Below the pieces are notes generated by a model that did no database searches, had not been told where the DNA came from, and saw only the letters and a list, made by a program, of their open reading frames with translations. A DNA stretch of 64,000 bases from Flavobacteriaceae bacterium UBA1903 (GTDB lineage Bacteria > Bacteroidota > Bacteroidia > Flavobacteriales > Flavobacteriaceae). A program made the translations under genes and the position numbers. This document shows positions 25,978-62,780 of the stretch, in pieces (the first letter of the stretch is position 1; each line of letters begins with the position of its first letter). The stretch lies in the NCBI GenBank assembly GCA_002337605.1, contig DDGL01000016.1, positions 293,935 through 357,934 on the forward strand, in the 5' to 3' direction.

Positions 25978-26020
25978 TAAATATACACTGATAGACTTGC
26001 AGCATCTATGATAAATATCA
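25978..26020 (-). promoter_or_regulatory. Crp/Fnr-type box + -7 element for the HMA gene
   Basis: TGATAAATATCA 26009-26020; TATATTTA starts 35 bp from the box start on the minus strand. Confidence 0.75.
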
Positions 26021-26031
26021 GTTTACTTAGC

Positions 26032-26074
26032 TGACTTATATCATTTTATCTTTAAAAATCGAAATCTATTTTTA
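26032..26074 (+). promoter_or_regulatory. Crp/Fnr-type box + -7 element for mlaEFD
   Basis: TGACTTATATCA 26032-26043; TATTTTTA at 26067 (+35). Confidence 0.75.
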
Positions 26075-26095
26075 CTTCTAAGAAAATGATGAATA

Positions 26096-26878
26096 TTGAA
26101 CAGCACCGACACGATAACAAGTAAAACCAAACGCTTTTTTGAAGAAATAGGCGATATGACATATTTCGCCATACGTTTCTTTAGAGAGGTTTTTACGGCT
26201 CCCTTTGAATGGAGGGAATTTGTTAGGCAATGTTACCAGATGGGCAATCGCTCCTTTTTGTTAGTGGGTGTTACTGGCTTTATTTTGGGATTGGTATTTA
26301 CCCTGCAATCCAGACCCACATTAATGGAGTTTGGAGCCGAATCGTGGATGCCCTCTATGGTAAGTATCTCCATCGTGCGTGAAATTGGCCCGGTAATTAT
26401 AGCCCTTATTTGTGCGGGACGCATAGGATCTGGAATTGGTGCCGAACTGGGCAGTATGAAAGTGACCGAGCAGATTGATGCGATGGAAGTGTCTGGAACC
26501 AATCCGTTTAAATATTTAGTGGTTACCCGAATTTTAGCCACTACGTTAATGCTCCCATTGCTCATCATAATGGGGGATGCCGTGGCACTTTTAGGTTCTG
26601 CCATTGTTGAGAATTTAAAAGGCGAAGTTTCATATCTGCTGTACTTTAACAAGGTCTTTGATGCCTTGCAGTTTAGCGATGTTATTCCTGCAACCATAAA
26701 GTCGTTTTTCTTTGGTTTTGCAATTGGTTTGGTAGGATGTTACAAGGGGTATCATTGCTCAAAAGGTACGGTTGGTGTTGGTGAAGCTTCAAATGCGGCT
26801 GTGGTCTATACCTCGATGCTACTCTTCGTTATTGACTTTATCGCCGTATTTCTAACCGATATTTTCTTTGAAATATGA
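26096..26878 (+). CDS. mlaE: MlaE-family ABC permease
   Basis: 'VREIGPVIIALICAGRIGSGIGAELGSMKVTEQIDAMEV'; TTG start. Confidence 0.92.
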   Translation: MNSTDTITSKTKRFFEEIGDMTYFAIRFFREVFTAPFEWREFVRQCYQMGNRSFLLVGVTGFILGLVFTLQSRPTLMEFGAESWMPSMVSISIVREIGPVIIALICAGRIGSGIGAELGSMKVTEQIDAMEVSGTNPFKYLVVTRILATTLMLPLLIIMGDAVALLGSAIVENLKGEVSYLLYFNKVFDALQFSDVIPATIKSFFFGFAIGLVGCYKGYHCSKGTVGVGEASNAAVVYTSMLLFVIDFIAVFLTDIFFEI

Positions 26879-26960
26879 AATGCACAATCACATACTTAAA
26901 ATCATTAAAAAATAATAAACAGGGCATTCCATCTTCCTATTTATCTAATAATATCTGCAG

Positions 26961-27698
26961 ATGAAAAAGCCCGTATTAGAAATAAAGGATTTACGCAAAA
27001 GTTTTGGCGACAACCACGTGTTACACGGTTTTAGCCTAAAGCTGTATAAAGGCGAGAATCTAGTGATTATGGGAAAGTCAGGTTCGGGGAAATCGGTAAT
27101 GATTAAATGTTTGGTGGGCTTGATGGCAGCCGATAGTGGCTCTATAAAAATTAAGGACTTTGATATCATTTCTCTGGGCAGAAAAGAACTGGATGTATTG
27201 CGAACTGAAATTGGTTTTCTCTTTCAGGGAAGTGCGCTGTATGATTCTATGACAGTTCGGGAAAATTTGGAGTTTCCCTTGCGCAGAAACAAAAACAAAA
27301 TTGATGGTTCGCAAACAACCGAAGCATTGGTACTCGAAGCCTTGGAAAATGTAGGTTTGGTACACGCCATAGATTTAATGCCAGCAGAGCTTTCTGGTGG
27401 GATGCAACGTCGTGTAGCATTGGCAAGAGCGCTGATATTGAAGCCAAAGATTATACTCTATGACGAACCCACCACAGGTCTTGACCCCATAACCTCGAAG
27501 GAAATTATTCAATTAATGCGCCGGATACAAGCCACATATAAAACATCATCACTTATCATTACTCACGATGTGGACTGCGCACGAGTGATTAGCAACCGAA
27601 TGATTTTATTGGTAGATGGAATAAACTATGCCGAAGGCACCTTTGAGGAACTTTCACAATCGCAAGACCCACAAGTAAAAGCCTTTTTTAAAACCTAA
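26961..27698 (+). CDS. mlaF: MlaF-family ABC ATPase
   Basis: 'GKSGSGKS', 'LSGGMQRRVALAR', 'LYDEPTTGLDP'. Confidence 0.9.
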   Translation: MKKPVLEIKDLRKSFGDNHVLHGFSLKLYKGENLVIMGKSGSGKSVMIKCLVGLMAADSGSIKIKDFDIISLGRKELDVLRTEIGFLFQGSALYDSMTVRENLEFPLRRNKNKIDGSQTTEALVLEALENVGLVHAIDLMPAELSGGMQRRVALARALILKPKIILYDEPTTGLDPITSKEIIQLMRRIQATYKTSSLIITHDVDCARVISNRMILLVDGINYAEGTFEELSQSQDPQVKAFFKT

Positions 27699-27703
27699 AG
27701 ATT

Positions 27704-28690
27704 ATGAAAAAATCAGCTTCCCATAAAACCCGAGTCGGATTGTTTGTTGTCGTTGGCACCCTATTGTTGGTGGCAGCACTCTATTTTATAGGTAATAGGC
27801 AACATATCTTTAGTAAGAATATGCAGGTGTATGCTGTTTTTCAGAATGTGAATGGCCTGCAATTAGGTAATAACGTTCGCTACTCTGGCATCAATGTAGG
27901 TACTGTTGGCAAAATTGAAATGGTCGATGAAGCCACCATAGTTGTGCAAATGATGGTGGAAGAAAAAACAGGCGCATTTATCAAGAGAGATGCGATAGCG
28001 ACCATTGGGTCAGATGGGTTGGTGGGAAGTATGGTGGTTAATATCCTTCCAGGGAAAGAAAATTTTTCCCAAATTAAATCTGGCGATACCATTCCTACCT
28101 ACAGCAAAATAGGTGCTGATGATATGCTATCAACCCTTAATGTAACTAACGAAAATGCGGCCTTGCTCACTTCAGACTTACTGAAAATTACTAATAAAAT
28201 CTTAGAAGGCGAAGGAGCCTTGGGAGCCCTTATCACAGATGCTACCTTAACTAAAGACATACGTGCCACCTTGACCAATCTAAAAAACACCACTAACGGC
28301 ACCAACCTATTAATTGCTTCCATAAATCGTAAGGTTTCAAAAATAGATATGGAAAATAGTGCGGCTGGAGTAGTGCTGAATGATACCCTTGTAGGCAATC
28401 AGATACAACGAATGGTATCTAATCTTGAAAAATCCAGTACTTCTATTTCGGAGACAACGAAGCAATTGGTAACTATTATTGCTGAGATTAATACGGCTGA
28501 AAGTACTTTCAATTACCTCACTAAGGATGAAACATTGCCAAAAACGATTGATTCCACAATGATAGAAATCAAAGAGGCTTCCCAAAAGTTGAATGAAAAT
28601 ATGGAAGCACTGAAACATAACTTTTTATTCAGAGGCTATTTTAGAAAACAAGAACGTGAAGCCAAGAAAAAAGATACATCTTCAAAATAA
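27704..28690 (+). CDS. mlaD: MlaD/MCE family protein
   Basis: 'NVNGLQLGNNVRYSGINVGTV', 'IGSDGLVG', helical C-terminus. Confidence 0.9.
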   Translation: MKKSASHKTRVGLFVVVGTLLLVAALYFIGNRQHIFSKNMQVYAVFQNVNGLQLGNNVRYSGINVGTVGKIEMVDEATIVVQMMVEEKTGAFIKRDAIATIGSDGLVGSMVVNILPGKENFSQIKSGDTIPTYSKIGADDMLSTLNVTNENAALLTSDLLKITNKILEGEGALGALITDATLTKDIRATLTNLKNTTNGTNLLIASINRKVSKIDMENSAAGVVLNDTLVGNQIQRMVSNLEKSSTSISETTKQLVTIIAEINTAESTFNYLTKDETLPKTIDSTMIEIKEASQKLNENMEALKHNFLFRGYFRKQEREAKKKDTSSK

Positions 28691-28695
28691 CAACA

Positions 28696-29193
28696 ATGAA
28701 CATAGAACACCTTGAAGAACGTGTGATAGATTATAAGACCTCTATCGAAACAGTGGTTTCCAAAAAGACTAAATGGAACAAATTTGCTAAGCCCTTGTTA
28801 TTAAAAACGCTGAAGGCTATTGCGACAAAATATCCCATTGGTTGGAAAGTACAGGAGCTCAATTGGATTCATAACAGCGAAGCCATTAATATTAGTTTTG
28901 AAGCCTTTCCGGAGGAATTAATGGATTGTACCAATAGAATTCCTGCATTTCAATTTATTCCTGGAGGAGCTTTGGTGTTCTCACAAACCTACAGTGGAGA
29001 TGTTTATATTTTTGTTCTATTTCCAGAAATTGACGGAATGTCTGTGGAAAATAATATGATAGAATTTGGAATGGTAAGCCCTTCAGAAATCACAGAAAAG
29101 GTAATTATTGAGAAAGTAGATGATTTTTTAAAGGAAATGATTCAATGGGAAGTGCCCAATAAGAAAACAAGAGTTGGCTATAGTTCCTCTTGA
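28696..29193 (+). CDS. Hypothetical protein
   Basis: 165-aa ORF in the mla operon. Confidence 0.6.
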   Translation: MNIEHLEERVIDYKTSIETVVSKKTKWNKFAKPLLLKTLKAIATKYPIGWKVQELNWIHNSEAINISFEAFPEELMDCTNRIPAFQFIPGGALVFSQTYSGDVYIFVLFPEIDGMSVENNMIEFGMVSPSEITEKVIIEKVDDFLKEMIQWEVPNKKTRVGYSSS

Positions 29194-30181: not shown

Positions 30182-30224
30182 TAAAAATAGATAAGCGAGC
30201 GCATACATAAGATGATATCTATCA
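30182..30224 (-). promoter_or_regulatory. Crp/Fnr-type box + -7 element for the small protein/patatin operon
   Basis: TGATATCTATCA 30213-30224; TATTTTTA at 35-bp offset on the minus strand. Confidence 0.75.
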
Positions 30225-30247: not shown

Positions 30248-30290
30248 TGATAAATATCATAGGGTTCAGGAAATTTCATGAGTATTTTAG
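30248..30290 (+). promoter_or_regulatory. Crp/Fnr-type box + -7 element
   Basis: TGATAAATATCA 30248-30259; TATTTTAG at 30283 (+35). Confidence 0.75.
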
Positions 30291-30309: not shown

Positions 30310-30819
30310 ATGAGATCGAAATTTATAAGTAGGGTGCTCTTTGTTTTAGGTATTGTTTTGGTATTACTGGCATTTGGCTATTGGTACAAGCTGACCTACT
30401 CTATGGAAGTTGCCGAAAATAGTGGGATTAATAGCCCACAGCTTGCAACCAAAATTTTGATAGCAACACAAGGTAGTGACTTTAAGGATGCCATTGTTAC
30501 TAACCTTATCAATTTCTATAAGAAAGATTCTGTACATCTTAAGACGATAGATGTCACGCAATTACGACAAGTTAAACCCAACGAGTATAATGCAATTATC
30601 CTTTTGCATACCTGGGAGTATGGAAAGCCACCTCGAATTGTGAGTCAATTCATCAATGAAAATAGCGCATTAAAAAACAAAATGATTGTTTACGCTACAT
30701 CTGGCGCTGGGAATAATAAAATAGAAGGTATTGATGCAATGGCTGGCGAGTCAATACTTGAAAATGCCAGTGATGTTTCTGATGAGGTTATTGAGAAGAT
30801 TGAGAGCATACTAAAATAG
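30310..30819 (+). CDS. Membrane-anchored hypothetical protein, possible flavodoxin-like fold
   Basis: N-terminal TM; 'KILIATQGSDFK', 'IVYATSGAG'. Confidence 0.55.
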   Translation: MRSKFISRVLFVLGIVLVLLAFGYWYKLTYSMEVAENSGINSPQLATKILIATQGSDFKDAIVTNLINFYKKDSVHLKTIDVTQLRQVKPNEYNAIILLHTWEYGKPPRIVSQFINENSALKNKMIVYATSGAGNNKIEGIDAMAGESILENASDVSDEVIEKIESILK

Positions 30820-30879: not shown

Positions 30880-30922
30880 TGATAAATATCATAGTATTCC
30901 TAATACCATCCTACTACTTTTG
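30880..30922 (+). promoter_or_regulatory. Crp/Fnr-type box + -7 element for hpf-USP
   Basis: TGATAAATATCA 30880-30891; perfect TAnnTTTG (TACTTTTG) at 30915 (+35). Confidence 0.85.
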
Positions 30923-30941: not shown

Positions 30942-31253
30942 ATGACAATTAATATTCAATTTGTAAAGATGAAGACCAGCGAGAGCTTGGTTGCGTATGT
31001 GACCAAGAAACTTCAAAAATTAAATAAAAAATATAGCTGGGTTATTCGGGCAGATGTATTTTTCAAAATTGAAAATGATCCTACTGAAAAAGGACATATC
31101 TGTGAAATGGAACTCAGTTTACCCGGTCCTAAAATATTTGCTGTTTCTAATGAGAAAAATTATGAAATGGCCGTAAAGGAAACCATTAGCGACCTCGATA
31201 AGCAACTAAAAAAACGAAAAGCAAAATTCACGAAACAAAATATCTCATCATAA
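30942..31253 (+). CDS. hpf: Ribosome hibernation promoting factor (HPF/RaiA family)
   Basis: 'INIQFVKM..SESL..YV.KKL.KL', 'IFAVS...NYEMAV.ETI..L.KQL.KRK'. Confidence 0.85.
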   Translation: MTINIQFVKMKTSESLVAYVTKKLQKLNKKYSWVIRADVFFKIENDPTEKGHICEMELSLPGPKIFAVSNEKNYEMAVKETISDLDKQLKKRKAKFTKQNISS

Positions 31254-32087
31254 ATGAAAAAAATACTCATACCCGTAGACTTTTCAGAACACTCTGAATA
31301 TGCCCTTGAAGTAGGAGCAACATTAGCAAAAAAACACGATGCTACTTTAATTGTCCTTCATATGATGGGGCTTTCAGAAGCTGTATTGACCAAAAATGAA
31401 TCCCAAGAAATGTTTGAAGCCATTTATTATATGAAGTTGGCCGAAAAGCGCTTCAGTGATTTTTTGAATAAAGACTATCTTAAAGGGATTACCATAGAAA
31501 CCACCGTTCAAAATTATAAAGAGTTTCACGAAATAAACAGGGTCGCTGAAGATTTCGAAGCCGACTTGATTTTGATGGGCTCTCACGGCGCCAGCGGTCT
31601 CAAGGAAGTATTCGTTGGAAGCAATACCGAAAAGGTAGTGCGAACTTCAGACATTCCAGTGTTGGTAATTAAAAATCGTACCGAAGAATTTAAAATGCAA
31701 AAGGTAGTATTTGCCTGCGACTTTAATATGGATTTCACAGGGGCATTCAAAAAAGCCTGGGATTTTTTTGAGAAGATTGATGCAGAGTTTCAAGTGGTCT
31801 TTATTAATACTCCAGAGAAATTTTTGAGCAATCAAGAAATGCAGGAACGTGCTTTTAAATTTATGTTACATAGTGGCGTGGACAATACCGATGTGTATGA
31901 TAACACTGCATATTACTGCGACTATAGATTAGAACACGGTATTTTCAGTTTTAGTGACGAGGTGGATGCAGATATGGTGGTAATCCCAACCCACGGAAGA
32001 AGAGGGCTGGCCCATTTCTTTTCTGAAAATGTTGGCGAGGCTATCGTGAATCATAGTGAGTTGCCCATAATGACCTTTAAGGTCTAA
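31254..32087 (+). CDS. Universal stress protein (tandem USP)
   Basis: 'ILIPVDFS', 'MGSHGASG', 'GSNTEKVVR', 'PTHGRRG'. Confidence 0.92.
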   Translation: MKKILIPVDFSEHSEYALEVGATLAKKHDATLIVLHMMGLSEAVLTKNESQEMFEAIYYMKLAEKRFSDFLNKDYLKGITIETTVQNYKEFHEINRVAEDFEADLILMGSHGASGLKEVFVGSNTEKVVRTSDIPVLVIKNRTEEFKMQKVVFACDFNMDFTGAFKKAWDFFEKIDAEFQVVFINTPEKFLSNQEMQERAFKFMLHSGVDNTDVYDNTAYYCDYRLEHGIFSFSDEVDADMVVIPTHGRRGLAHFFSENVGEAIVNHSELPIMTFKV

Positions 32088-32621: not shown

Positions 32622-32664
32622 TAAAGATAGGGTGTTTCACTTGCTAAAATAATGATATTAATCA
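32622..32664 (-). promoter_or_regulatory. Crp/Fnr-type box + -7 element
   Basis: TGATATTAATCA 32653-32664; TATCTTTA at 35-bp offset on the minus strand. Confidence 0.75.
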
Positions 32665-35880: not shown

Positions 35881-36291
35881 TTATTCTTTAAATAAAAGTT
35901 CTAATCTAGTAAGCATTATTAATTCACTTTTATTACTGCCCCTAAAGGCATTTGCGATTTTTCGAGCTGTACGTATAATGAGCTCTTTTCTATTTCCGTA
36001 GAAACTATTTTTTTTGTCATTATAATAATCCTCAAAATCATTGTAGCAGTCCTGAGCATCCATTTGCTCATAATCAAACCACTCAAACACAATAGCCATC
36101 TGGTATGCGGCATCGGTACCAAATCTATCTTCGTAGTCATCCATACTTTTCCATTCGTCTTCCACCATTTTAGCCAATGCATCGTATTCTGACTTCCGTA
36201 CCACTCTGTCTGAGGCTGCCACAGCGTAAAAGAGTTCACCAATTTTTTGATAGAACAGTAACTCAGGTTTGCTTACTTTTTCCATTTTCAA
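35881..36291 (-). CDS. Hypothetical protein, TerB-like
   Basis: 'LFYAVAASDRVVRKSE', 'IANAFRG.NKSE'. Confidence 0.5.
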   Translation of the reverse strand: MKMEKVSKPELLFYQKIGELFYAVAASDRVVRKSEYDALAKMVEDEWKSMDDYEDRFGTDAAYQMAIVFEWFDYEQMDAQDCYNDFEDYYNDKKNSFYGNRKELIIRTARKIANAFRGSNKSELIMLTRLELLFKE

Positions 36292-36304: not shown

Positions 36305-36380
36305 TAAAACTACAGTTGCAATTTTGCACGTGCTATGATATTTATCAGTTAAAACTGTTATTATAAATTCGGTATTTTTA
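36305..36380. promoter_or_regulatory. Crp/Fnr-type box between divergent operons
   Basis: TGATATTTATCA 36336-36347; TAGTTTTA at 35-bp offset (minus); TATTTTTA at 36373 (+37) toward the kinase. Confidence 0.7.
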
Positions 36381-36384
36381 CAGT

Positions 36385-37902
36385 ATGGAAGTTTTTAAAA
36401 AAGGGAGCAATGTATTTAGGATTCTTTCGGAAGCTGTTTCTGAAGGAATCATATTTGTAAATCATCAACAAATTATAGTAGCCACAAACAAGGCTGCAAA
36501 TATGCTGTTTGGATATGCCGAAGAAGAACTTATAGGACAACATCTGGACATTTTAATTCCTGAAAAATACCACAGCGACCATCATAAGCACGTGAAGGGT
36601 TTTATGAAGGGTAGTGACAAAAGGCAAATGGGACACGGCCGAGATTTATATGGAAAGAGAAAAGATGGTTCTCAATTTCCAGTAGAAGTAGGACTCAACC
36701 CTTTTACTATTTACGAGAATGATTATGTGATGGCACTGGTCATAGATATATCTGTTAGGAAAAAGGCAGAGCAAGAGCTAAAGCATTGGGCAGAAATTTT
36801 TAATGAATCGCTCAACGAAATTTTTATTTTTGATGCAGCTTCACTAAAATTTCTGGATGTAAACAGAGGGGCACAAAGAAATATTGGGTTCTCACTGGAC
36901 GAATTGAGGGGGTTAACACCGGTAGATATAAAACCTGATTTTGATGAAGTAACTTTCCACAATACAATTGAACCTTTACTTAATGGGGAAAAAGAAAAGT
37001 TGAAATTTAATACTACCCATCAACGTAAAGATGGAAGCACTTATCCTGTAGAGGTGCATTTACAGAAAACTGTGAGAGACAATAAAGACACATTGGTAGC
37101 CATAATATTGGATATTACCGAGCGTGTCGAATACACAGATAAGCTGGAGAAAGAAGTTGTAGAACGCACACGACAGTTGCAAGATGCCCTTGCTAAAGAA
37201 AAAGAACTGGGCGAACTGAAAACTAAATTCCTATCGCTGGTTTCCCACGAATTTAAAACACCTTTGAGTGGAATTTTGACTTCTGCCACCTTAGCTGGAA
37301 AATATACAAAGACAGACCAACAGGAAAAGCGGGACAAGCATCTTAAAACTATTACCAGTAAAGTAAAATATCTCAATAATATTATCAATGATTTTCTTTC
37401 TATTGAACGGCTGGAAAGTGGAAATGTAAACTACAAATTTTCCACTTTCCCCTTGAGTAAAGTGGTAAACGAAGTTATTTATGATGCCAATATGTTACTT
37501 AAAGAAGGACAATCCATAGCGTATCCTGAGGGCATAGATAATATTGTAGTAGATTTTGATGAAAAAATATTAGAGCTGGTCTTGACCAACTTAATTAATA
37601 ACGCAATAAAATATTCTTCAGAGCACACCACGATAAAGATAGTTGCCGAGATTATTGATGATAAACTAAAAGTTATGATTTCTGATGAAGGAATTGGAAT
37701 TCCTAAAGAAGAACAAAAATATATTTTTAACCGATACTTTAGGGCAGAAAACGCCCTTTTGGACCAAGGAACAGGAATTGGACTTAACATAGTAAAGACC
37801 CACTTGGAGAAGTTAGGAGGCACTATTACCTTTAGAAGTATTGAAAATGAGGGATCCACCTTTGCCATTACCGTCCCATTAAATATCGAAAATAAATTAT
37901 GA
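36385..37902 (+). CDS. Cytoplasmic two-PAS sensor histidine kinase (FixL-like first PAS)
   Basis: PAS1 'LFGY..EELIGQ..ILIP.KY..DHHKH....RQMGHGRDLYGKRKDGSQFPVE'; H-box 'SHEFKTPL'; N/G boxes; no TM. Confidence 0.88.
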   Translation: MEVFKKGSNVFRILSEAVSEGIIFVNHQQIIVATNKAANMLFGYAEEELIGQHLDILIPEKYHSDHHKHVKGFMKGSDKRQMGHGRDLYGKRKDGSQFPVEVGLNPFTIYENDYVMALVIDISVRKKAEQELKHWAEIFNESLNEIFIFDAASLKFLDVNRGAQRNIGFSLDELRGLTPVDIKPDFDEVTFHNTIEPLLNGEKEKLKFNTTHQRKDGSTYPVEVHLQKTVRDNKDTLVAIILDITERVEYTDKLEKEVVERTRQLQDALAKEKELGELKTKFLSLVSHEFKTPLSGILTSATLAGKYTKTDQQEKRDKHLKTITSKVKYLNNIINDFLSIERLESGNVNYKFSTFPLSKVVNEVIYDANMLLKEGQSIAYPEGIDNIVVDFDEKILELVLTNLINNAIKYSSEHTTIKIVAEIIDDKLKVMISDEGIGIPKEEQKYIFNRYFRAENALLDQGTGIGLNIVKTHLEKLGGTITFRSIENEGSTFAITVPLNIENKL

Positions 37903-38945
37903 GAACCATCCTATTAATAGAAGACGATACCGCCTTACGTGAGAATACTGCAGAACTTTTAGAACTTGCCGATTATGATGTGTTAACTGCTCCAAATGGT
38001 AGGATTGGCATTGATATGGCCAAAGATAATATCCCGAACATCATTGTGTGCGATATTATGATGCCAGAAATAGATGGTTATGGAGTTTTGGAAGCCTTGT
38101 CTATAGACGAGAAGACTACACATATACCTTTTATCTTCTTATCTGCTAAGACGGAACACAAAGAGATACGAAAGGGGATGGATCTTGGGGCCGATGATTA
38201 CCTTACGAAACCTTTTGAAGAAGAAGAGCTGATGAGTGCCATTGAAAGTAGATTAGCTAAAGCAGAAATTTTAGCAAAATCAATACCTCCGGTTTCTAAA
38301 ACAAAAGAGGATGAAGGTGGACTCAGAGACTTAAATGAACTCAAAAACTTCTTTGATGACAATGGTGTAGTTTCAACTTATACACCTGGCGAAAAAATTT
38401 ATGATGAATGGTCACACTCAAATACGGTGTATCTTATTTTAAAAGGAACTGTAAAATGTTTTAAGCTGGATGATGGAAAAGAACTCATTACCGCACTTTA
38501 CAAAGCAGATGATTTTTTAGGATTTACCTCTTTTGAAAAAAGCATGTTACATCAAGAATCTGCTGTAGCTATAGACAATGTAGAATTGGCTGGAATTTCT
38601 AAAAATGAATTAAAAGAAATTCTAACTAAGAATAAAGAAGTTTCTCTTGCCTTAGTAAATGTTTTGAGCGATACTGTTTCTGAGATTAAAGAACAGCTTT
38701 TACAAATGGCGTACAGCTCGGTACGTAAAAAAACGGCCCAAACTATTTTACAATTTTCACAAATCCTCAATAAAAAACCAGACGAGGCCATTAAGATTTC
38801 ACGAGCAGATCTGGCAAGTGTTGCGGGAATAGCCACAGAAAGTTTGATACGTACCTTATCTGAATTCAAAAAGAAAAATCTCATTGAGATAGAAGGGCGC
38901 AATATTACGATCCGAAACTTGGAAGCGCTGGAGATGATGGTGTAA
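37899..38945 (+). CDS. Response regulator: REC + cNMP-binding-like + Crp-type HTH
   Basis: 'LIEDD', 'CDIMMP', 'LSAK', 'TKPF'; C-terminal 'ISRADLASVAGIATESLIRTLSEFK'. Confidence 0.9.
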   Translation: MRTILLIEDDTALRENTAELLELADYDVLTAPNGRIGIDMAKDNIPNIIVCDIMMPEIDGYGVLEALSIDEKTTHIPFIFLSAKTEHKEIRKGMDLGADDYLTKPFEEEELMSAIESRLAKAEILAKSIPPVSKTKEDEGGLRDLNELKNFFDDNGVVSTYTPGEKIYDEWSHSNTVYLILKGTVKCFKLDDGKELITALYKADDFLGFTSFEKSMLHQESAVAIDNVELAGISKNELKEILTKNKEVSLALVNVLSDTVSEIKEQLLQMAYSSVRKKTAQTILQFSQILNKKPDEAIKISRADLASVAGIATESLIRTLSEFKKKNLIEIEGRNITIRNLEALEMMV

Positions 38946-38959: not shown

Positions 38960-39002
38960 TGACAATTGTCATTCTTTACTGGATAGCTCCCCAATACATT
39001 TG
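38960..39002 (+). promoter_or_regulatory. Crp/Fnr-type box + -7 element for USP
   Basis: Perfect palindrome TGACAATTGTCA 38960-38971; TACATTTG at 38995 (+35). Confidence 0.85.
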
Positions 39003-39019: not shown

Positions 39020-39856
39020 ATGCAACATATTTTAATTCCTACAGATTATTCCCTAAACGCTTGGAATGCTCTCGAGTATGCGTTTCAGTTTTTTAGTAAA
39101 CAACGGGTAACATTTCATTTAATTCACGTTGAGACTTCCCACGCTATACTCCAAGATGAAAATCTACATACATCGGGCTTCCTTTCCTTGAATGAAATAG
39201 ATAGCGAATTGCAAGATGAAATGGCTACGTTGCTGGAGCAAGCAAGTAGTAAAAAAGGGAGCAAAAATCATAGAATTGTCGCTTCTGTGGTTAAAGGGCG
39301 CTTTATCGAGCGCATCCGTGAATATGTAATAACCAATACCATAGATTTAATAATAATGGGCACCAAGGGAGCTTCTGGTATAAAAGAAATGACCGTAGGA
39401 AGTAGCGCAGGAGCAGTTATTACCAAGGTTAAATGTCCAGTTTTGGTCATTCCGGAAGAAGCTACTTATACGCCTCCAATAAATATTGGGTTCCCTACAG
39501 ATTTTAACATTCCCTACACCAATAAGGTGCTACGTATTTTGCTAAGTATGGCAAAAACCCATAAATCAATGGTCAAAGCGCTTAGGGTTGCACAAAATCA
39601 ACAACCCTTAAACGCTTTTCAAAATACCAATAGGGTGTATTTAAAGGATCAACTTGCTGAAATAGATCATAGCTTTCACGTAGTAGAAGATACTAATCTG
39701 GAAGATGCACTACAGTCTTTTATTAGTTCTTTCAAAATCGATATGGTGGTAATGATAGCAAAAAGCCTCAATCTTTTCCAACGTATTTTATTTAATCCCC
39801 GTGTCAAAAAGATAAGCTATCACACCCGGATACCTTTCTTAGTTTTACACGAATAA
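39020..39856 (+). CDS. Universal stress protein
   Basis: 'ILIPTDYS', 'IMGTKGASG'. Confidence 0.9.
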   Translation: MQHILIPTDYSLNAWNALEYAFQFFSKQRVTFHLIHVETSHAILQDENLHTSGFLSLNEIDSELQDEMATLLEQASSKKGSKNHRIVASVVKGRFIERIREYVITNTIDLIIMGTKGASGIKEMTVGSSAGAVITKVKCPVLVIPEEATYTPPINIGFPTDFNIPYTNKVLRILLSMAKTHKSMVKALRVAQNQQPLNAFQNTNRVYLKDQLAEIDHSFHVVEDTNLEDALQSFISSFKIDMVVMIAKSLNLFQRILFNPRVKKISYHTRIPFLVLHE

Positions 39857-39900: not shown

Positions 39901-39943
39901 TGATAAATATCATTTTATAAGGGTGTTTCTCATAGTAGATTTG
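39901..39943 (+). promoter_or_regulatory. Crp/Fnr-type box + -7 element for the USP trio
   Basis: TGATAAATATCA 39901-39912; TAGATTTG at 39936 (+35). Confidence 0.85.
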
Positions 39944-41700: not shown

Positions 41701-42549
41701 ATGAAGACAATACTTGTACCCACAGATTTTTCTAAAAATGCATATTGTGCATTGCACTATGCAACACAACTCTTTTCAAATGAAACGTGTAAATTTATTA
41801 TTCTACACTCTTTTGAAAATCAAGTCAGTAATCTTACCAGCAGGGTTGATATTGGTAAAACAGAAGCCGTTGTTGATGAACTTTATAACACCTATGAAAA
41901 CAAATGTGATGCAGTGATGCACACCATCGTAAGGGATAATCCAAACGATGAACATACGTATAAAACCATTGCAACTTCAATAAGTTTAGCCAGAGCCATC
42001 AATAGATTGGTGGTCAAGGAAAATGTAAACTTCGTGGTAATGGGCAGCAAGGGGGCTACGGGAGCCGCGTCGGTTTTTATGGGTAGCAACACCCTACGGA
42101 TGATTAAAAAAATTAAAAATGCACCCTTATTAATTGTCCCTCAGAAATTAGATTTCACGCCCATAAAAAAGATAGTATTTACTACCGGATTTAAGCGAGC
42201 CTATACCGCTGAAGAGTTACAACCTTTAATAACTATTGGAGAAGGTCAGAATGCAATTGTAAAAGTTGCGTATATTCACGAAAAGGAAAAAATGACAGAA
42301 AGTCAACGGGAGCACCTACACCAACTATTTGATATACTAAACCCCTTGAAACCAGAATTACATTGGTTACACGAAACTACAGATAAGTATGATGCTGTAA
42401 CTTCATACATCAATAAAGAAAATGTAGAGATGCTGGCAATGGTCTATTACAAGCATAACTTTTTTGTCTCTCTTTTTCGTGAGGCTGTGGTAAAAAATAT
42501 AGCCGAACATAGCGCAGTACCATTTTTGATTCTTCCATCCAAGAGCTGA
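41701..42549 (+). CDS. Universal stress protein
   Basis: 'ILVPTDFS', 'VMGSKGATG', 'MGSNT'. Confidence 0.9.
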   Translation: MKTILVPTDFSKNAYCALHYATQLFSNETCKFIILHSFENQVSNLTSRVDIGKTEAVVDELYNTYENKCDAVMHTIVRDNPNDEHTYKTIATSISLARAINRLVVKENVNFVVMGSKGATGAASVFMGSNTLRMIKKIKNAPLLIVPQKLDFTPIKKIVFTTGFKRAYTAEELQPLITIGEGQNAIVKVAYIHEKEKMTESQREHLHQLFDILNPLKPELHWLHETTDKYDAVTSYINKENVEMLAMVYYKHNFFVSLFREAVVKNIAEHSAVPFLILPSKS

Positions 42550-42589
42550 TATATATCATAGTTGTTGCCATCGTACCGTGTTATTTTTA
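42547..42589 (+). promoter_or_regulatory. Crp/Fnr-type box + -7 element for USP/ATP-cone/MBL operon
   Basis: Perfect palindrome TGATATATATCA 42547-42558 (overlaps the upstream TGA stop); TATTTTTA at 42582 (+35). Confidence 0.8.
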
Positions 42590-46547: not shown

Positions 46548-46621
46548 CAAAATTAGCTCGTTAGTTATTCTTAGTAAATGACATATATCATTTTTCACTG
46601 GCATTTTTCAAACTATTTTAG
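46548..46621. promoter_or_regulatory. Single Crp/Fnr-type box serving two divergent promoters
   Basis: TGACATATATCA 46579-46590; TAATTTTG at 35-bp offset (minus) and TATTTTAG at 46614 (+35). Confidence 0.8.
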
Positions 46622-47455: not shown

Positions 47456-47498
47456 TGATAATTATCATTTCCAGCACATTGACACTGAGGTATTTTTA
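47456..47498 (+). promoter_or_regulatory. Crp/Fnr-type box + -7 element for hsp20
   Basis: Perfect palindrome TGATAATTATCA 47456-47467; TATTTTTA at 47491 (+35). Confidence 0.8.
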
Positions 47499-47985: not shown

Positions 47986-48000
47986 ACCTCTTAATTGAAG

Positions 48001-48042: not shown

Positions 48043-48054
48043 AAAAGTCCTTTT

Positions 48055-48492: not shown

Positions 48493-48505
48493 CTTTTATC
48501 TAAAA

Positions 48506-48943
48506 ATGAAAAATATAACCTACAAAATAGTACAATGGAGTACACCAGAAGAATTGTATAGCGAATGTCTGGAATGGGCATCGCAATTAAAATTCATTAA
48601 AGACGAACAGCGCTTTCTGGACAATCTCATTAAAGAATACACGGTATCTCTAATTTCAGAAGATGCCTACAATGATTCTTTAAAACTGGTAGGGGAATTG
48701 AATACTGAAGAAAAGGAACTGTCTAAGTTATTTAAAAGAGTAAAAGATCATACTAACAGTATTGAGGTTTTGCTTGACGCTACAGCGGACGAACGCAAAG
48801 GAGCTGCATATAGAGAGATACATTACTATTTGAAAGTTGATGTATTTACGTATGCCAAAAAGTATCGCGAAACTAAAACGGCACTGTTCAAAAAAATCAA
48901 GAAGTTAATGAAAAATGAAAAACGTTGTCATTTACTGAAATAA
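48506..48943 (+). CDS. Hypothetical four-helix-bundle-like protein (paralog of 48055)
   Basis: 'WASQLKFIKDEQRFLDNL', 'HTNSI', 'HYYL'. Confidence 0.65.
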   Translation: MKNITYKIVQWSTPEELYSECLEWASQLKFIKDEQRFLDNLIKEYTVSLISEDAYNDSLKLVGELNTEEKELSKLFKRVKDHTNSIEVLLDATADERKGAAYREIHYYLKVDVFTYAKKYRETKTALFKKIKKLMKNEKRCHLLK

Positions 48944-48962
48944 TCTTTTAAAACGTAGTATT

Positions 48963-49601: not shown

Positions 49602-49606
49602 TCAAG

Positions 49607-50596
49607 ATGAAAGTACTTATCTATAGTGCCAAACCTTTTGAGGAGCCTTTGCTTAAGACTGCAAATAACCGAGTTCACGACCTTTATTTTACGGAAGAAC
49701 GACTTACTTCAGAAAATGCGATGCTGGCATTAAATTATGATGCTATTTCTATTTTTTCGGCAGATGATGCCTCAGATATCGTTCTTGAAAAGCTACACGA
49801 TTTTGGGGTTAAGTTTATTACACTTCGTTCCGCAGGTCACGATAACATCAATTTAAAAACAGCCCGCACACTTGGGCTTAAAGTGGCCAATACACCAGAG
49901 TACTCTCCAAATGCCATTGCTGAACACGCTATAGCATTACTTCTCGCCTACAACAGAAAGTTAATTAAGGCGCAAAGCCAAACGTTACGTAACAACTTTC
50001 TTTTAGATAACTTGATTGGTTTTGATGTAAACAAAAAAACTGTCGGTGTAATGGGCACTGGGAAAATAGGAAGTGTACTGGTTAAGATCTTACACGGATT
50101 TGGATGTAAAATTGTAGCCAACGATACCAGTAGCGATGAGCAACTCATAAGAGATTATGAAGTAGCGTATATTTCTAAAGATGCAATTGCGGTAGAAGCT
50201 GAGATCATTTTTATTTGTTTACCCCTTACTCAAAACACACACCATTTATTTGATGCGGAATACATTAGCAAGTTAAAGAAAAAACCAATTATTGTAAATG
50301 TAGCGCGTGGTGCCATTGTAGAGACTGAAGAAATTTTAGAAGCGCTCAATAGTGATATTATTAGTGGGTATGCGACTGACGTATATGAGCTTGAGCACGG
50401 TATTTTTTTCTATAATCGATCTAACGATGCTCCAAAAGATGCAATTTTGCACCAACTACTTTGTCATCCCAAAACAGTAGTAACACCGCATCAAGCCTTC
50501 GCTACAAATGAGGCACTGCAGAATATTGCTTCAGCAACCATTGATAATTTAAATGCCTGGGATAATGGAAAACATTCGATTAATGAGCTTTCGTAG
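49607..50596 (+). CDS. ldhA: D-isomer 2-hydroxyacid dehydrogenase (D-lactate dehydrogenase-like)
   Basis: 'LRSAGHDNI', 'YSPNAIAEH', 'GTGKIG', 'NVARG', 'DVYE.E', 'TPHQAF'. Confidence 0.85.
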   Translation: MKVLIYSAKPFEEPLLKTANNRVHDLYFTEERLTSENAMLALNYDAISIFSADDASDIVLEKLHDFGVKFITLRSAGHDNINLKTARTLGLKVANTPEYSPNAIAEHAIALLLAYNRKLIKAQSQTLRNNFLLDNLIGFDVNKKTVGVMGTGKIGSVLVKILHGFGCKIVANDTSSDEQLIRDYEVAYISKDAIAVEAEIIFICLPLTQNTHHLFDAEYISKLKKKPIIVNVARGAIVETEEILEALNSDIISGYATDVYELEHGIFFYNRSNDAPKDAILHQLLCHPKTVVTPHQAFATNEALQNIASATIDNLNAWDNGKHSINELS

Positions 50597-51451: not shown

Positions 51452-51494
51452 CGAATGTAAATTCAATAGGGAAGAAAAAGAATGAGATATATCA
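51452..51494 (-). promoter_or_regulatory. Imperfect Crp/Fnr-type box + -7-like element
   Basis: TGAGATATATCA 51483-51494; TACATTCG at 35-bp offset on the minus strand. Confidence 0.6.
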
Positions 51495-59901: not shown

Positions 59902-59976
59902 CAAATTTAGATGAGATACTAAGGGTAAAAGATGACTTTTGTCATATTTCGGACAATTTTATCTTTTTTATATTTG
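59902..59976. promoter_or_regulatory. Single Crp/Fnr-type box serving the nos operon and the rrf2 operon
   Basis: TGACTTTTGTCA 59933-59944; TAAATTTG at 35-bp offset (minus), TATATTTG at 59969 (+36). Confidence 0.85.
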
Positions 59977-59994: not shown

Positions 59995-60429
59995 ATGTTT
60001 TCAAAAGCCTGTGAATATGGTATCCGTTCTTTGATCTTTATTGCAATGAAATCGAACGAGGGTAAACGGGTCAATATTTCAGCTATTTCAAAACAGATAG
60101 ATGGACCAGAAGCCTTTACCGCAAAAGTGTTGCAACAACTTGTAAAAGGCGGTGTGATCAAATCAATAAAAGGACCTCATGGTGGTTTTGAAATTACATC
60201 AGAAAGTATAGAGGCGACTACACTTGCAGATATAGTAGCGATTATCGATGGACCTAAAATTTATAGCGGCTGTGGGTTGGGGCTCAACGACTGTAACGAA
60301 GAAAAACCCTGTCCATTACATTTTCAATTTGCAGAAGTAAGAAACGGACTTAAAACAATGTTGGAAAATACGACGCTCCAAACCCTAGCTTTTGACCTAG
60401 AAGCCGGGACATCATTCTTAAAGCATTAA
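59995..60429 (+). CDS. Rrf2 family transcriptional regulator
   Basis: 'YGIRSL', 'KVLQQL...GVIKSIKGPHGGF', three Cys 'CGLGLNDC....PCPLH'. Confidence 0.9.
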   Translation: MFSKACEYGIRSLIFIAMKSNEGKRVNISAISKQIDGPEAFTAKVLQQLVKGGVIKSIKGPHGGFEITSESIEATTLADIVAIIDGPKIYSGCGLGLNDCNEEKPCPLHFQFAEVRNGLKTMLENTTLQTLAFDLEAGTSFLKH

Positions 60430-60456
60430 AAATTTAAATTCAATAAATAAAATAAT

Positions 60457-61203
60457 ATGGAAGCACTTAAAAAGAAAGAGATAGGGCGATTTGTAGCCGA
60501 AGATTTTAGAACAGCCGCAGTATTTTCTGAATACGGAATCGATTTTTGCTGTCGTGGCAACAGACCTCTGGACGAAGTTTGTGAGAAAAATAATATTGTC
60601 TTGGAAGATATTCTTGAAAAACTGGAAATCTCGTCCACACAAGTACAGCATAATGTGCAGGCTTTTAATACGTGGCCACTGGACTTACTGGTAACCTATA
60701 TTGAAAAGACCCATCATAAATATGTAGAAAGCAAGATACCAGTACTATCACAATTTTTAACCAAACTTTGCAAGGTTCACGGCGAACGCCATCCAGAGCT
60801 TATTGAAATTAACCGCTTATTTGAAGCCGTTGCGGGCGAGTTGGCACAGCATATGAAAAAAGAAGAATTGGTGCTTTTTCCACGTATTAAAAAGATGGTT
60901 GAAAGTATTGACGAAAATATACCTCTGGAACCAGCTCATTTTGGCACCGTGCAAAATCCCATTTCTATGATGGAACACGAGCACGACAATGCGGGGCAGA
61001 TCTTTAGAGATATTTCAAAACTTAGTGATGGATACACGCCACCAGAAGACGCTTGTAACACCTACAAAGTTACATTTTCTATGCTTGATGAGTTTGAAAA
61101 AGACCTTCATCTACATATTCACCTTGAAAACAATATTTTGTTTCCAAAAGCATTAAAAATGGAACAAAAGCTGATGTCAAGTAATCAAAGTTGTGCCCTC
61201 TAA
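60457..61203 (+). CDS. ric: Iron-sulfur cluster repair di-iron protein (Ric/YtfE/ScdA)
   Basis: 'GIDFCCRG', 'HHKY', 'HMKKEE..LFP', 'MEHEHD', 'HIHLENNILFP'. Confidence 0.93.
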   Translation: MEALKKKEIGRFVAEDFRTAAVFSEYGIDFCCRGNRPLDEVCEKNNIVLEDILEKLEISSTQVQHNVQAFNTWPLDLLVTYIEKTHHKYVESKIPVLSQFLTKLCKVHGERHPELIEINRLFEAVAGELAQHMKKEELVLFPRIKKMVESIDENIPLEPAHFGTVQNPISMMEHEHDNAGQIFRDISKLSDGYTPPEDACNTYKVTFSMLDEFEKDLHLHIHLENNILFPKALKMEQKLMSSNQSCAL

Positions 61204-61238
61204 GAGGTTTAAGACTTCATACATATTCTATAAAGCAG

Positions 61239-61625
61239 ATGGTAAAAACGATTGAAAACAGGGAAGATATTTCATTTCTGGTGCATAGTTTTTATGCGAA
61301 GGTGCGGAAGGATTCCCTTTTGGGTCCAATTTTTAACAGCCATATACCTGAAGAAAAATGGCCTGAACACCTTGAAAAGTTAACCGATTTTTGGGAAACC
61401 AATCTTTTTGGTATTGCAAAATTTAAGGGAAGTCCTACTCAAAAACACGTGAATGTGGACCGTAACCTAAACCATACCGTAGGCCAAAACCATTTTGGGC
61501 AATGGCTCAATTTGTGGTTTGAGACAATAGATATTCTTTTTGAAGGTCAACTGGCACAAAATGCGAAAGAAGCTGCCAGAAGAATGGCACACGGGCAGTT
61601 TATGGCTATCTGGAACCATCGATAA
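61239..61625 (+). CDS. Group III truncated hemoglobin
   Basis: 'LVHSFYAKVR.D.LLGPIF', 'HLEKLTDFW', 'KH', 'HFGQWL.LW'; start taken at MVKTI. Confidence 0.88.
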   Translation: MVKTIENREDISFLVHSFYAKVRKDSLLGPIFNSHIPEEKWPEHLEKLTDFWETNLFGIAKFKGSPTQKHVNVDRNLNHTVGQNHFGQWLNLWFETIDILFEGQLAQNAKEAARRMAHGQFMAIWNHR

Positions 61626-61697: not shown

Positions 61698-61734
61698 GTT
61701 TATAGAACAGAGCTCTAAATACTAAAAATTAAAA

Positions 61735-61986
61735 TCAAATTAATTCTGTTTCTGAATCATTGATTTCATTATTTTTAACAGGAAATCCTTTAATGGGGTG
61801 TCCTATTTCAGCAAGACTCATTTCGAGCGATATCAAAGCATTGTGCGAAATGCAGTCCAAAATCAAATAGCCATTAGAGATATCTAACTGAGTGTTGGAT
61901 ATTCCTTCTATGCTCGCCGCTTTCTTCACTACGGTATCGGCACAATCTTTACACTTCAAAATATGTGATTTAAATTCAACTTTCAC
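61735..61986 (-). CDS. HMA-like domain protein
   Basis: 'LKCKDCADTV' CxxC; GTG start. Confidence 0.7.
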   Translation of the reverse strand: MKVEFKSHILKCKDCADTVVKKAASIEGISNTQLDISNGYLILDCISHNALISLEMSLAEIGHPIKGFPVKNNEINDSETELI

Positions 61987-62004
61987 AACCTTTAATCTTT
62001 AAGA

Positions 62005-62047
62005 CAAAATTAGAAGGTTTTTATCCTATGGATTATGACAAAAGTCA
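62005..62047 (-). promoter_or_regulatory. Crp/Fnr-type box + -7 element
   Basis: TGACAAAAGTCA 62036-62047; TAATTTTG at 35-bp offset on the minus strand. Confidence 0.85.
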
Positions 62048-62128
62048 GTTAGGTCTTTTTTTGATATGGCGTTTGCACAACCCTCGCATTTTAAACTTCA
62101 TCAAACGAATGTTGTGTTCATAGCAGGC

Positions 62129-62584
62129 TTAAAATTTTCTTATTCTTCCAGTTATCTCATCCATACTAATGGAAAATACAATTGGTATTTCGTCATTCTC
62201 TATTTTACTTGAGAATTCACTTAAAAAATTTAAATCCCTTAGTTCCTTACGTATAATTAATTCTTTTACCCCTAAAGAGAATTGATGAAGTAAGGCTTTT
62301 GCTGTACTTCCCGAGCTTTCCTCATACGTGCCTTTAATAAGGACTGATTTCCACTCATTAACAGATTCAATATCTGTGACAGAAAGAGAAACCGAATGGT
62401 TTTTACGCATAGCATTAATCTTGTGCCCGATAGCTGAATAACAGATGATTTTCTTCTGCTCTGCATTATAGAAATACGTAATTGGTACTACAATAGGTGT
62501 GTTTTGATGAATATATCCCAATGAACCAATGTAATTATTACTAAGTAGTAGCAAATTTTCGGTTTTGTCTAATCTCTTTGTCAT
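62129..62584 (-). CDS. Pyridoxamine 5'-phosphate oxidase-like protein (paralog of 32143-32598)
   Basis: Same length and motifs, shared 'GSTAKALLHQFSLGVK'. Confidence 0.85.
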   Translation of the reverse strand: MTKRLDKTENLLLLSNNYIGSLGYIHQNTPIVVPITYFYNAEQKKIICYSAIGHKINAMRKNHSVSLSVTDIESVNEWKSVLIKGTYEESSGSTAKALLHQFSLGVKELIIRKELRDLNFLSEFSSKIENDEIPIVFSISMDEITGRIRKF

Positions 62585-62605
62585 ATCATTGAATTTAATT
62601 CAACA

Positions 62606-62648
62606 TAAAATTAAACCGGCTGCCTTGAAAATTTTATGACTTATGTCA
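62606..62648 (-). promoter_or_regulatory. Crp/Fnr-type box + -7 element
   Basis: TGACTTATGTCA 62637-62648; TAATTTTA at 35-bp offset on the minus strand. Confidence 0.8.
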
Positions 62649-62737
62649 GCAAATCGATATTTCCTATTAAGAAGTATCGTGATTTAATAAATGGATGTCT
62701 TTTCAGAATCTCGTGATAGCATCAAAATAATTTAGAC

Positions 62738-62780
62738 TGACTTAAATCATCTTTTTTATGCAACAGGTCTCATAATTTTG
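62738..62780 (+). promoter_or_regulatory. Crp/Fnr-type box + -7 element
   Basis: TGACTTAAATCA 62738-62749; TAATTTTG at 62773 (+35). Confidence 0.85.

Follow-up and report, generated by a model that had tools for sequence, protein, structure and literature searches.

Which regulators control a block of stress and respiratory genes that share one short palindromic box, and to what signal do they answer? The question is raised by a 64-kb stretch of the genome of Flavobacteriaceae bacterium UBA1903, a marine flavobacterium (3.42 Mb in 16 contigs), at C12:293935-357934 (contig DDGL01000016.1); this stretch is the window, and positions below are counted from its first base unless a contig is named. 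An initial annotation had listed 17 boxes, assigned about 37 kb of genes to one activator and named no regulator. We consider it likely, from the sequence, that the boxes mark a clustered low-oxygen regulon of 21 sigma-A promoters, read by Crp/Fnr-type activators that are encoded on site, a hybrid response regulator and an FNR-like protein. The sites span ~62 kb, from 24147 to ~86243, and extend past the end of the window: 18 lie within it and three beyond, at window-equivalent positions 74226, 76941 and 86243. They are thus the 17 boxes of the initial annotation, a further one at 24147 and the three outside the window. The protein that would bind each box, its action as an activator rather than a repressor, and oxygen as the signal are our predictions.

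Genes were called with a simple picker that scores open reading frames (ORFs) by codon usage, and the protein identities of the window ORFs come from Pfam, NCBIfam and PDB searches. The pattern TGAYNNNNRTCA is matched exactly 24 times in the window, against an expectation of 4.25 +/- 2.1 from 100 dinucleotide-preserving shuffles of the window, none of which reached 24. There are 137 exact boxes genome-wide, only 31 of them intergenic by our own gene calls; 18 of these 31 are inside the window and three more just past its right end. All 21 regulon sites have the inverted repeat TGA-N6-TCA of Crp/Fnr class II promoters, as an exact or one-mismatch TGAYN4RTCA. Sixteen of the 17 boxes first listed are exact and lie where they had been placed; the remaining one, TGAGATATATCA at 51483, has one mismatch, and the orthologous promoters in two relatives (G001 and G014) carry an exact box. 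The listed boxes are all intergenic, as had been described, the one at 42547 overlapping a stop codon by 3 nt. The impression that the first 25 kb contain no site was mistaken, as the box at 24147 (TGACATATGTCA) is a true site that is conserved in relatives.

The regulon boxes stand at a fixed distance from a promoter element. We defined a -7-like element as TAnnTTT[G/A] with at least 5/6 specified positions matched, which has a background of 1.4% per intergenic position and strand in this genome. At all 21 sites such an element begins exactly 35 bp from the start of the box in at least one orientation, facing a gene start ~50-85 bp away (binomial tail for 21/21, ~1e-33). Tallied in both orientations, offset 35 collects 22 hits, and each of the remaining offsets from 12 to 79 collects 0-3. 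The genome-wide spacing test that the initial annotation had proposed, run as an independent count that took no site list as its basis and paired exact boxes with a strict TAnnTTT[GA] on both strands, gave 19 pairs at 35, against 0-3 at any of the other offsets from 25 to 45. The fixed offset is present at every box for which it had been reported, and so are the two additional divergent promoters, 36 bp from box 59933 (towards rrf2) and 37 bp from box 36336 (towards the kinase gene described below). Seven exact boxes, six in coding sequence (6146, 10568, 18174, 28560, 46210 and 53492) and one intergenic (23968), have no -7 element at +35 and are therefore not members of the regulon. One-mismatch boxes have no genome-wide peak at offset 35 (9 against a background of ~9), so that nearly every member of the regulon has an exact box; the one-mismatch match before parA (C16:307446) was rejected as probably due to chance.

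A position weight matrix (PWM), whose scan is circular for its training sites as the exact-pattern counts are not, separates 22 sites in all: regulon sites score 16-22.9, the highest being box 46579 (22.9), and everything else scores at most 15.5 and is coding, except C14:906517. This sole high-scoring composite site outside the island (C14:906517-906559; TGACAAATATCA, PWM 19.0) has a -7-like element at +35 and no called gene within 750 bp downstream, and may drive a small ORF or a small RNA.

The fixed spacing can be translated into promoter coordinates. In the transcription start site (TSS) atlas of Flavobacterium psychrophilum the sigma-A consensus TAnnTTTG spans -12 to -5 (PMC9723704), and because the box lies a fixed 35 bp upstream of this element it occupies -47 to -36, with its centre at -41.5, a position that applies the F. 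psychrophilum element to this genome and is predicted rather than mapped here. Start codons lie ~13-25 nt past the predicted +1, in keeping with the short leaders of this phylum. An oriented logo, built from 131 composite promoters (box and -7 element) of eight regions in seven genomes, brings out features that had not been selected for: A or C at -48, T at -35 in 96% and A at the predicted +1 in 57% of promoters. Positions -35 to -32 read T-w-K-T, with G at -32 in only 5%, and -29 to -13 carry no information. Each promoter thus has the 12-bp palindrome (A/C)TGAY-AwwT-RTCA at -47 to -36, T at -35, a weak T-rich -33 element, an uninformative spacer and TAnnTTT[G/A] at -12 to -5. The position mirroring the -35 T on the far side of the box is C in 62% and A in 34%, and the T probably belongs to the -33 element and not to the activator site. 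The -33 consensus is TTTG, weak -33 elements are expected of activator-dependent promoters, and -41.5 is the classical class II position of Crp/Fnr activators. These features support the earlier view of the boxes as Crp/Fnr-type sites at a predicted class II position before Bacteroidota sigma-A promoters; the assignment to the type stands, with (A/C)TGAY-N4-RTCA-T in place of the canonical TTGAT-N4-ATCAA.

Candidate regulators are encoded within and beside the island. A histidine kinase gene (36385-37902, + strand) specifies a haem-type PAS domain, a second PAS domain, HisKA and HATPase_c (Pfam). The first PAS domain matches FixL structures (1D06, E 1.2e-16; 1D06, 1DP6 and 2CMN, E 1e-15 to 1e-16; FixL and DosP haem domains together, E 1e-13 to 1e-16). 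Its His (...SDHHKH...) aligns with the FixL His of ...EHDGY... or ...RHDSY..., which we take to be the haem-binding residue, and the Arg of FixL GIDR/GIGR is retained as GHGR. The domain therefore has the proximal His of the FixL haem-PAS, and haem binding itself is predicted. Overlapping the kinase gene by 4 nt, and translationally coupled to it, is the gene for a 348-aa hybrid regulator (37899-38945, + strand) with Response_reg, cNMP_binding and HTH_Crp_2 domains, an architecture that no PDB entry covers. Its receiver (Response_reg, E 1.7e-26) shows a canonical active site, with the acidic pocket E8-D9-D10, the phospho-acceptor D52, and the conserved S82 and K104.

Apart from the hybrid, a single protein of the genome scores above the HTH_Crp_2 cut-off, a 233-aa FNR-like protein encoded at C12:359464-360165 (window-equivalent 65530-66231), ~1.5 kb past the end of the window, so that both such proteins are encoded in or next to the island. 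The FNR-like protein aligns with Aliivibrio fischeri FNR over its full length, from residue 8. Of the four cluster cysteines of FNR (Escherichia coli C20, C23, C29 and C122) it retains the equivalents of Cys20, Cys23 and Cys122, with Asn at the equivalent of Cys29, and Cys58 may serve as the fourth ligand; the hybrid has its receiver in place of the cysteine region. The two proteins have recognition helices, ATESLIRTL (hybrid) and ATELLIRTL (FNR-like protein), that differ only in Ser versus Leu. Both keep the Glu and Arg of FNR E209-x-x-S212-R213, and both have Ile for Ser212. In FNR, Ser212 reads the first T of TTGAT, and the change to Ile is plausibly linked to boxes that start (A/C)TGA and lack that T.

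Do these regulators travel with the boxes? We searched 41 related genomes for the hybrid, the FNR-like protein and the composite pattern box-N23-TANNTTTR, for which a reversed-pattern control gave 0-2 hits per genome. The full-length hybrid is present in ten genomes, all of which have 7-36 composite promoters (G000, G001, G003, G004, G007, G008, G009, G014, G018 and G023), and all ten genomes with neither regulator have 0-2; the 21 with the FNR-like protein only have 0-20. Five genomes with the hybrid and without an FNR orthologue have 8-27 composite promoters near the hybrid gene, and in the hybrid-only G001, G003 and G007, 17/17, 8/8 and 8/9 sites lie near it, within 20-72 kb. The contrast holds within one genus, that of G001, G003 and G007 with their 17, 8 and 9 sites, where two genomes with neither regulator (G002 and G006) have no site and one with the FNR-like protein only (G005) has two, both flanking fnr/cco. 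The hybrid part is missing in three of nine same-genus genomes, and the island is therefore accessory, gained or lost as a unit. Across the phylum the full-length hybrid occurs in 41 of 301 sampled genomes, from 36 genera. More than 7,500 clusters at 90% identity match it at E <1e-30, and all are named generically ('response regulator', 'CRP-like cAMP-binding protein').

Individual promoters are conserved as well. When the ORFs of relatives' islands were blasted against the island of this genome and six regions were compared, the box was kept at the same distance in 6/6 regions before the USP (universal stress protein) genes at 39020, 39966 and 42616 and before a 136-aa gene divergent from the kinase, in 5/6 before the genes for HPF and mlaE, in four before the TauE/SafE gene, in four before ccoI and ccoS, and in three before the nos cytochrome c gene. 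Aligned by their boxes, the promoters of the USP genes, HPF, mlaE and the 136-aa gene share the box, the following T and the -7 element, while from genus to genus their 23-bp spacers bear no relation to one another. On sequence grounds, a conserved box and spacing with diverged spacers are a phylogenetic footprint, that of a functional site whose geometry is constrained.

Whether one activator or two would read these sites is answered in part by their half-sites. Between 24 and 51 kb, around the hybrid gene, TGAT and TGAC half-sites number 21 and 6; between 59 and 86 kb, around fnr, they number 1 and 13 (Fisher p = 2.6e-5). In FNR-only genomes (G005, G015, G019 and G020) fnr always adjoins cco, and boxes precede ccoI, ccoS, hemN, nos and one USP gene, which is the content of the right-hand block (59-86 kb) here. 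We therefore favour, with somewhat better than even confidence, two paralogous activators of overlapping specificity with a soft division of labour; the single activator of the initial annotation is probably two, by the half-site split and the match of the right-hand block to the FNR-only gene set. If instead the hybrid alone drove the whole set of 21 promoters, those of nos, cco and hemN among them, the FNR-like protein would be redundant, have a few targets of its own elsewhere or act as a modulator. The nearly identical recognition helices would allow this, and G001, G007 and G014, which lack a classical FNR, have ccoI, ccoS and nos boxes inside the hybrid island; because the cco and nos promoters sit in its island in hybrid-only genomes, the hybrid appears able to serve them without FNR. 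We nevertheless think it unlikely that the hybrid acts alone here, given that half-site composition differs sharply between the blocks in both genomes with both regulators, that the right-hand block equals the conserved FNR-only regulon with FNR always next to cco, and that in G008 the blocks lie on different contigs, each with its own regulator. The converse, in which the FNR-like protein reads all boxes and the hybrid has another role, such as competing for these boxes in air as an anti-activator or repressor, or regulating its own operon alone, draws on the 7-20 composite promoters of the hybrid-less G013, G015, G019 and G020, where FNR alone can evidently run such a regulon, one USP gene included. 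It is very unlikely in view of the five hybrid genomes without an FNR orthologue described above, of the 0-2 sites in same-genus genomes without the hybrid, and of the boxed USP, HPF, Hsp20 and Mla promoters, which travel with the hybrid and not with FNR.

Two other explanations do without an activator of this kind. Since the box abuts the -35/-33 region, a bound dimer could block sigma region 4, and the boxes might be operators for repression or roadblock, or be bound by an unrelated factor, with the fixed spacing reflecting occlusion of the -33 region. This is highly improbable: the -33 elements are weak (TwKT, not TTTG), as activator-dependent promoters would have them, the predicted centre lies exactly at -41.5, on one helix face, at 21 of 21 sites, the hallmark arrangement of class II activation by Crp/Fnr proteins, the operators of repressors can vary in position, and the sites co-occur with Crp/Fnr-type proteins. 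An AT-rich region (35.5% GC, compared with 38.5% for the genome) with many paralogous USP genes could also generate palindromes by chance or spread one promoter along with its gene. The shuffles, the 19 pairs at offset 35 against 0-3 elsewhere and the reversed control leave chance a negligible probability, and promoter duplication as the origin of the repeats was rejected, as the spacers carry no information and differ both between sites and between orthologues.

Several points weigh against the reading of two activators at oxygen-responsive promoters. The half-sites of G008 split 16/4 and 1/11 between the blocks (p = 1.3e-4), and as a close relative it supplies no independent evidence. Helices that differ at a single position make cross-binding likely, so the T/C partition may be soft; the cco boxes of hybrid-only genomes are still fairly C-rich, and half-sites in FNR-only genomes are ~50:50. 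The TSS positions and the oxygen response of this organism are predicted, the gene calls, from codon-usage-scored ORFs, are crude, and with no equivalent of Cys29 the iron-sulfur chemistry of the FNR-like protein is only predicted. The distance from box to -7 element on the kinase side, in a regulon otherwise strict at 35 bp, is 37, 36, 36, 36, 26 and 24 bp in six genomes, which leaves positive autoregulation of the hybrid uncertain. On the kinase side (36373-36387), and likewise in the orthologous loci L013, L017, L023, L026 and L030, the -7 element ends 4 nt before the ATG, which points to a leaderless mRNA for kinase and regulator. That the FNR-like gene regulates itself was considered and is unsupported, as upstream of it lies only a one-mismatch box (66653) without a -7 element.

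We hypothesize that the two activators would work as follows. Loss of oxygen from the kinase haem would lead to autophosphorylation and phosphotransfer to Asp52 of the hybrid receiver, and the phosphorylated receiver would release or dimerize the Crp-like module, which could then bind at -41.5. The FNR-like protein would act likewise through an oxygen-labile cluster. Bound Crp/Fnr-type dimers would recruit RNA polymerase by class II contacts, a step that we propose because the -33 element appears too weak to work alone. The hybrid would act mainly on TGAT boxes between 24 and 51 kb, before genes for USPs, HPF, Hsp20, OsmC, Mla, flavoproteins, a lactate-type dehydrogenase and its own divergent operon; the FNR-like protein would act mainly on TGAC boxes between 59 and 86 kb, before nos, Rrf2-Ric-trHb, one USP gene, ccoI, ccoS-ccoNOQP and hemN.

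The circuit resembles several known systems. Like FixL-FixJ-FixK of rhizobia and Caulobacter, and its hFixL-FxkR-FixK variant, it combines an oxygen-sensing haem-PAS kinase, here predicted, with a terminal Crp/Fnr activator on a TGA-N6-TCA-type palindrome at about -41.5, also predicted here, before fixNOQP/cco, fixGHIS/ccoGHIS, hemN and nos. Here, in contrast, neither a FixJ (REC-LuxR) nor a FxkR (REC-OmpR) protein stands between kinase and activator, and fixK is not a gene of its own; the receiver of the coupled regulator is followed by cNMP_binding and HTH_Crp_2, so that three steps would be reduced to two proteins. The box also differs ((A/C)TGAY-N4-RTCA-T rather than TTGAT-N4-ATCAA), the promoters are of the Bacteroidota -33/-7 type, and USPs and stress proteins predominate among the regulon members. 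By its predicted parts, the system works like the FixL-FixJ-FixK cascade but is not a member of it. With proteobacterial FNR, ANR and FnrL it shares the DNA-binding fold family, the E-x-x-x-R helix, the palindrome geometry, the centre, here predicted, at -41.5 and the targets cco, hemN and nos; the FNR-like protein departs from them by Asn for Cys29 and Ile for Ser212, and the hybrid by having no cysteine cluster and, as we infer, by receiving its signal through phosphorylation.

In gene content there is a parallel with DosS/DosT-DosR of Mycobacterium tuberculosis, in which a haem kinase and a response regulator likewise preside over USPs, Hsp20, a ribosome hibernation factor and flavin proteins. 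The DosR set, induced under hypoxia or nitric oxide (NO), includes USPs, alpha-crystallin (Hsp20), a ribosome hibernation factor and flavin nitroreductase-like proteins, and the domain searches bear out the likeness drawn by the initial annotation, with USPs, Hsp20, HPF and flavoproteins all found here. DosR, however, has a NarL/LuxR-type output and another DNA motif, and DosS and DosT sense through GAF domains, whereas here the output is Crp-type and the sensor a PAS domain; no NarL/LuxR-type regulator with GAF-haem kinases was found in this role. The two systems are phylogenetically unrelated, and the parallel is one of gene content and logic and not of descent. NssR of Campylobacter and Dnr/NnrR, Crp/Fnr regulators of genes for nitrosative stress and denitrification, have an FNR-like box at about -40 before a truncated haemoglobin gene (Ctb-type) and NO-detoxifying genes, and box 59933 here likewise faces Rrf2-Ric-trHb III. 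Neither regulator here gives evidence of NO sensing, unlike those systems, and an Rrf2 (NsrR-like) protein is encoded in the Rrf2-Ric-trHb operon.

Which genes would the 21 promoters serve? The assignments of the initial annotation (eight USPs, HPF, Hsp20, OsmC, two Pyridox_ox_2 flavoproteins, a D-2-hydroxyacid dehydrogenase, MlaEFD, nos, ScdA/Ric and a globin) are borne out by Pfam, NCBIfam and PDB matches. The eight USP genes, all of the tandem type, start at 31254, 39020, 39966, 40832, 41701, 42616, 50599 and 62805. To the left of the island, which occupies 24000-64000 of the window, positions 1-24000 hold an adjoining block of defence genes (restriction-modification, KAP NTPase and GmrSD-like).

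The leftmost site, absent from the earlier list (24147..24189, + strand; box TGACATATGTCA at 24147-24158, -7 element TATGTTTG at 24182-24189), faces a TauE/SafE gene (24183/24207-24935) and has orthologous sites in G008, G014 and G003. Box TGATAAATATCA at 26009-26020, with a minus-strand -7 element at 25978-25985 (25978..26020, - strand), precedes a heavy-metal-associated (HMA) gene (25691-~25969), of which an orthologue in G014 also has the site. The longest ORFs called for the TauE/SafE gene (start 24183) and the HMA gene (start 26005) overlap at their starts with the predicted -7 element of the gene itself; translation probably begins 8-12 codons later, judging by orthologues in G014 and G003, which are correspondingly shorter. 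On the plus strand (26032..26074), TGACTTATATCA and TATTTTTA stand before mlaE-mlaF-mlaD and a 165-aa gene (26096-29193). A box at 30213-30224 with a minus-strand -7 element (30182..30224, - strand) serves a 68-aa ORF and a patatin-like lipase gene (30161-29178). Two plus-strand sites with the box TGATAAATATCA follow: one with the -7 element TATTTTAG (30248..30290) lies before a 169-aa gene (30310-30819; weak flavodoxin-like match) that has an orthologue with the site in G008, and one with TACTTTTG (30880..30922) before the genes for HPF (30942-31253) and a tandem USP (31254-32087). The box at 32653-32664, with a minus-strand -7 element (32622..32664, - strand), precedes the first Pyridox_ox_2 flavoprotein gene (32598-32143).

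At the centre of the island the bidirectional box 36336-36347 (36305..36380) separates the kinase gene, with the -7 element TATTTTTA at 37 bp on the plus side, from a minus-strand operon of six genes (36291-32680) whose -7 element lies at 35 bp. The operon encodes a 136-aa protein, DUF3298 and DUF998 proteins, thioredoxin, a DeoC-like aldolase and a protein of the purine-nucleoside-phosphorylase (PNP) family, and its promoter is conserved in 6/6 regions. The 136-aa protein (35881-36291, - strand) is acidic, has no Pfam or NCBIfam match, and is the most conserved regulon member, with the box in all six compared regions. Downstream of the hybrid gene, three plus-strand promoters lead into USP genes, each conserved in all six regions: TGACAATTGTCA with TACATTTG (38960..39002) before a single gene (39020-39856), TGATAAATATCA with TAGATTTG (39901..39943) before three tandem-USP genes (39966-42549), and TGATATATATCA with TATTTTTA (42547..42589) before genes for a USP, an ATP-cone/Mrr-like nuclease and a beta-CASP hydrolase (42616-45679). 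The nuclease and the metallo-hydrolase (43471-45679) are thus predicted to be co-transcribed with the USP gene behind box 42547.

Box 46579-46590 is again bidirectional, with a -7 element at 35 bp on both sides (46548..46621), towards the OsmC gene (46522-46064) on the minus strand and two small genes without assigned function (46637-47444) on the plus strand. The first of these, 46637-47050, encodes a 137-aa protein behind the best-scoring box, with many invariant aromatic residues; in a search of 5.8 billion proteins it has nine homologue clusters, all marine flavobacterial. It was rejected as a globin, its only Protoglobin match having E 0.2 and no His being invariant. The globin of the initial annotation is instead 61239-61625, a group III truncated haemoglobin (2IG3, E 1.7e-16) that Pfam and NCBIfam missed. 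Further right, TGATAATTATCA with TATTTTTA (47456..47498, + strand) precedes genes for Hsp20, three proteins without assigned function and the D-2-hydroxyacid dehydrogenase (47539-50596), and the one-mismatch box TGAGATATATCA at 51483-51494, with the minus-strand -7-like element TACATTCG (51452..51494, - strand), a USP gene (51432-50599).

The bidirectional box TGACTTTTGTCA at 59933-59944 (59902..59976) faces the nos operon (59826-51597) at 35 bp on the minus side and the Rrf2-ScdA/Ric-trHb operon (59995-61625) at 36 bp on the plus side; its nos-side site is conserved in G008, G001, G014 and G015. The nos cluster is of the clade II type, with genes for a cytochrome c and a fasciclin protein followed by nosZ, nosL, nosD, nosF and nosY. 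Box TGACAAAAGTCA at 62036-62047 with the minus-strand -7 element TAATTTTG (62005..62047, - strand) precedes an 83-aa ORF (61986-61735), and TGACTTATGTCA at 62637-62648, also with a minus-strand -7 element (62606..62648, - strand), the second Pyridox_ox_2 flavoprotein gene (62584-62129). The last site in the window, TGACTTAAATCA with TAATTTTG (62738..62780, + strand), leads to a USP gene (62805-63638) and a PNPOx-like gene (63642 onward), and is conserved in G008 and the FNR-only G005. Beyond the window the sites stand before ccoI (~74226), before ccoS-ccoN (~76941) and on the hemN side (~86243); besides the FNR-like gene, one more USP gene, ccoI, ccoS-ccoNOQP, ccoG, a second truncated haemoglobin gene and hemN are found there. 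The interval from fnr to ccoI also holds, in divergent orientation to the ccoI box, genes for a REC-AAA+-Fis response regulator of the sigma-54 type and a histidine kinase (C12:365648-368062; window-equivalent 71714-74128), which may be a further input to the respiratory block.

Full-text searching of the literature turned up no account of this regulon, nor any of REC-Crp/Fnr hybrids, in agreement with the initial annotation, which knew of no characterization. The Crp/Fnr homologues of a Flavobacteriales metagenome-assembled genome have been assigned to MalR-like carbon sensing, in an account that does not treat the present system (PMC8510549). According to the F. psychrophilum atlas, cbb3 oxidase and haem genes are strongly induced when oxygen is limiting; it names no regulator or motif for them (PMC9723704). 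In N2O-respiring Cloacibacterium, which is used to cut farmland N2O emissions, NosZ expression is described as hypoxia-triggered and bet-hedged, with no regulator known (PMC11168931).

Little of oxygen regulation in Bacteroidota has been charted, and here the sequence displays a complete circuit, from sensor and regulator to operator, promoter geometry and ~60 target genes. We suggest tentatively, as a single claim that we rate a little short of even, that the hybrid and its FixL-like kinase are a so far unnamed hypoxia master regulator across Bacteroidota, a FixL-FixJ-FixK cascade collapsed into two proteins, which would activate a DosR-like island, together with clade II nosZ and cbb3 where FNR is absent, and which, where FNR coexists, would be insulated from it by the TGAT/TGAC base and the Ser/Leu helix difference. 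To this the window adds a clean natural experiment within one genus and the T/C half-site partition between the hybrid and FNR blocks. In a tractable flavobacterium the circuit could be tested directly with deletions, reporters and binding assays. If the proposal is true, phosphorylation through a fused receiver would be a new signal input for the Crp/Fnr family, the island would be a non-actinobacterial counterpart of the DosR dormancy programme, and the regulator would offer a handle on the expression of clade II nosZ.

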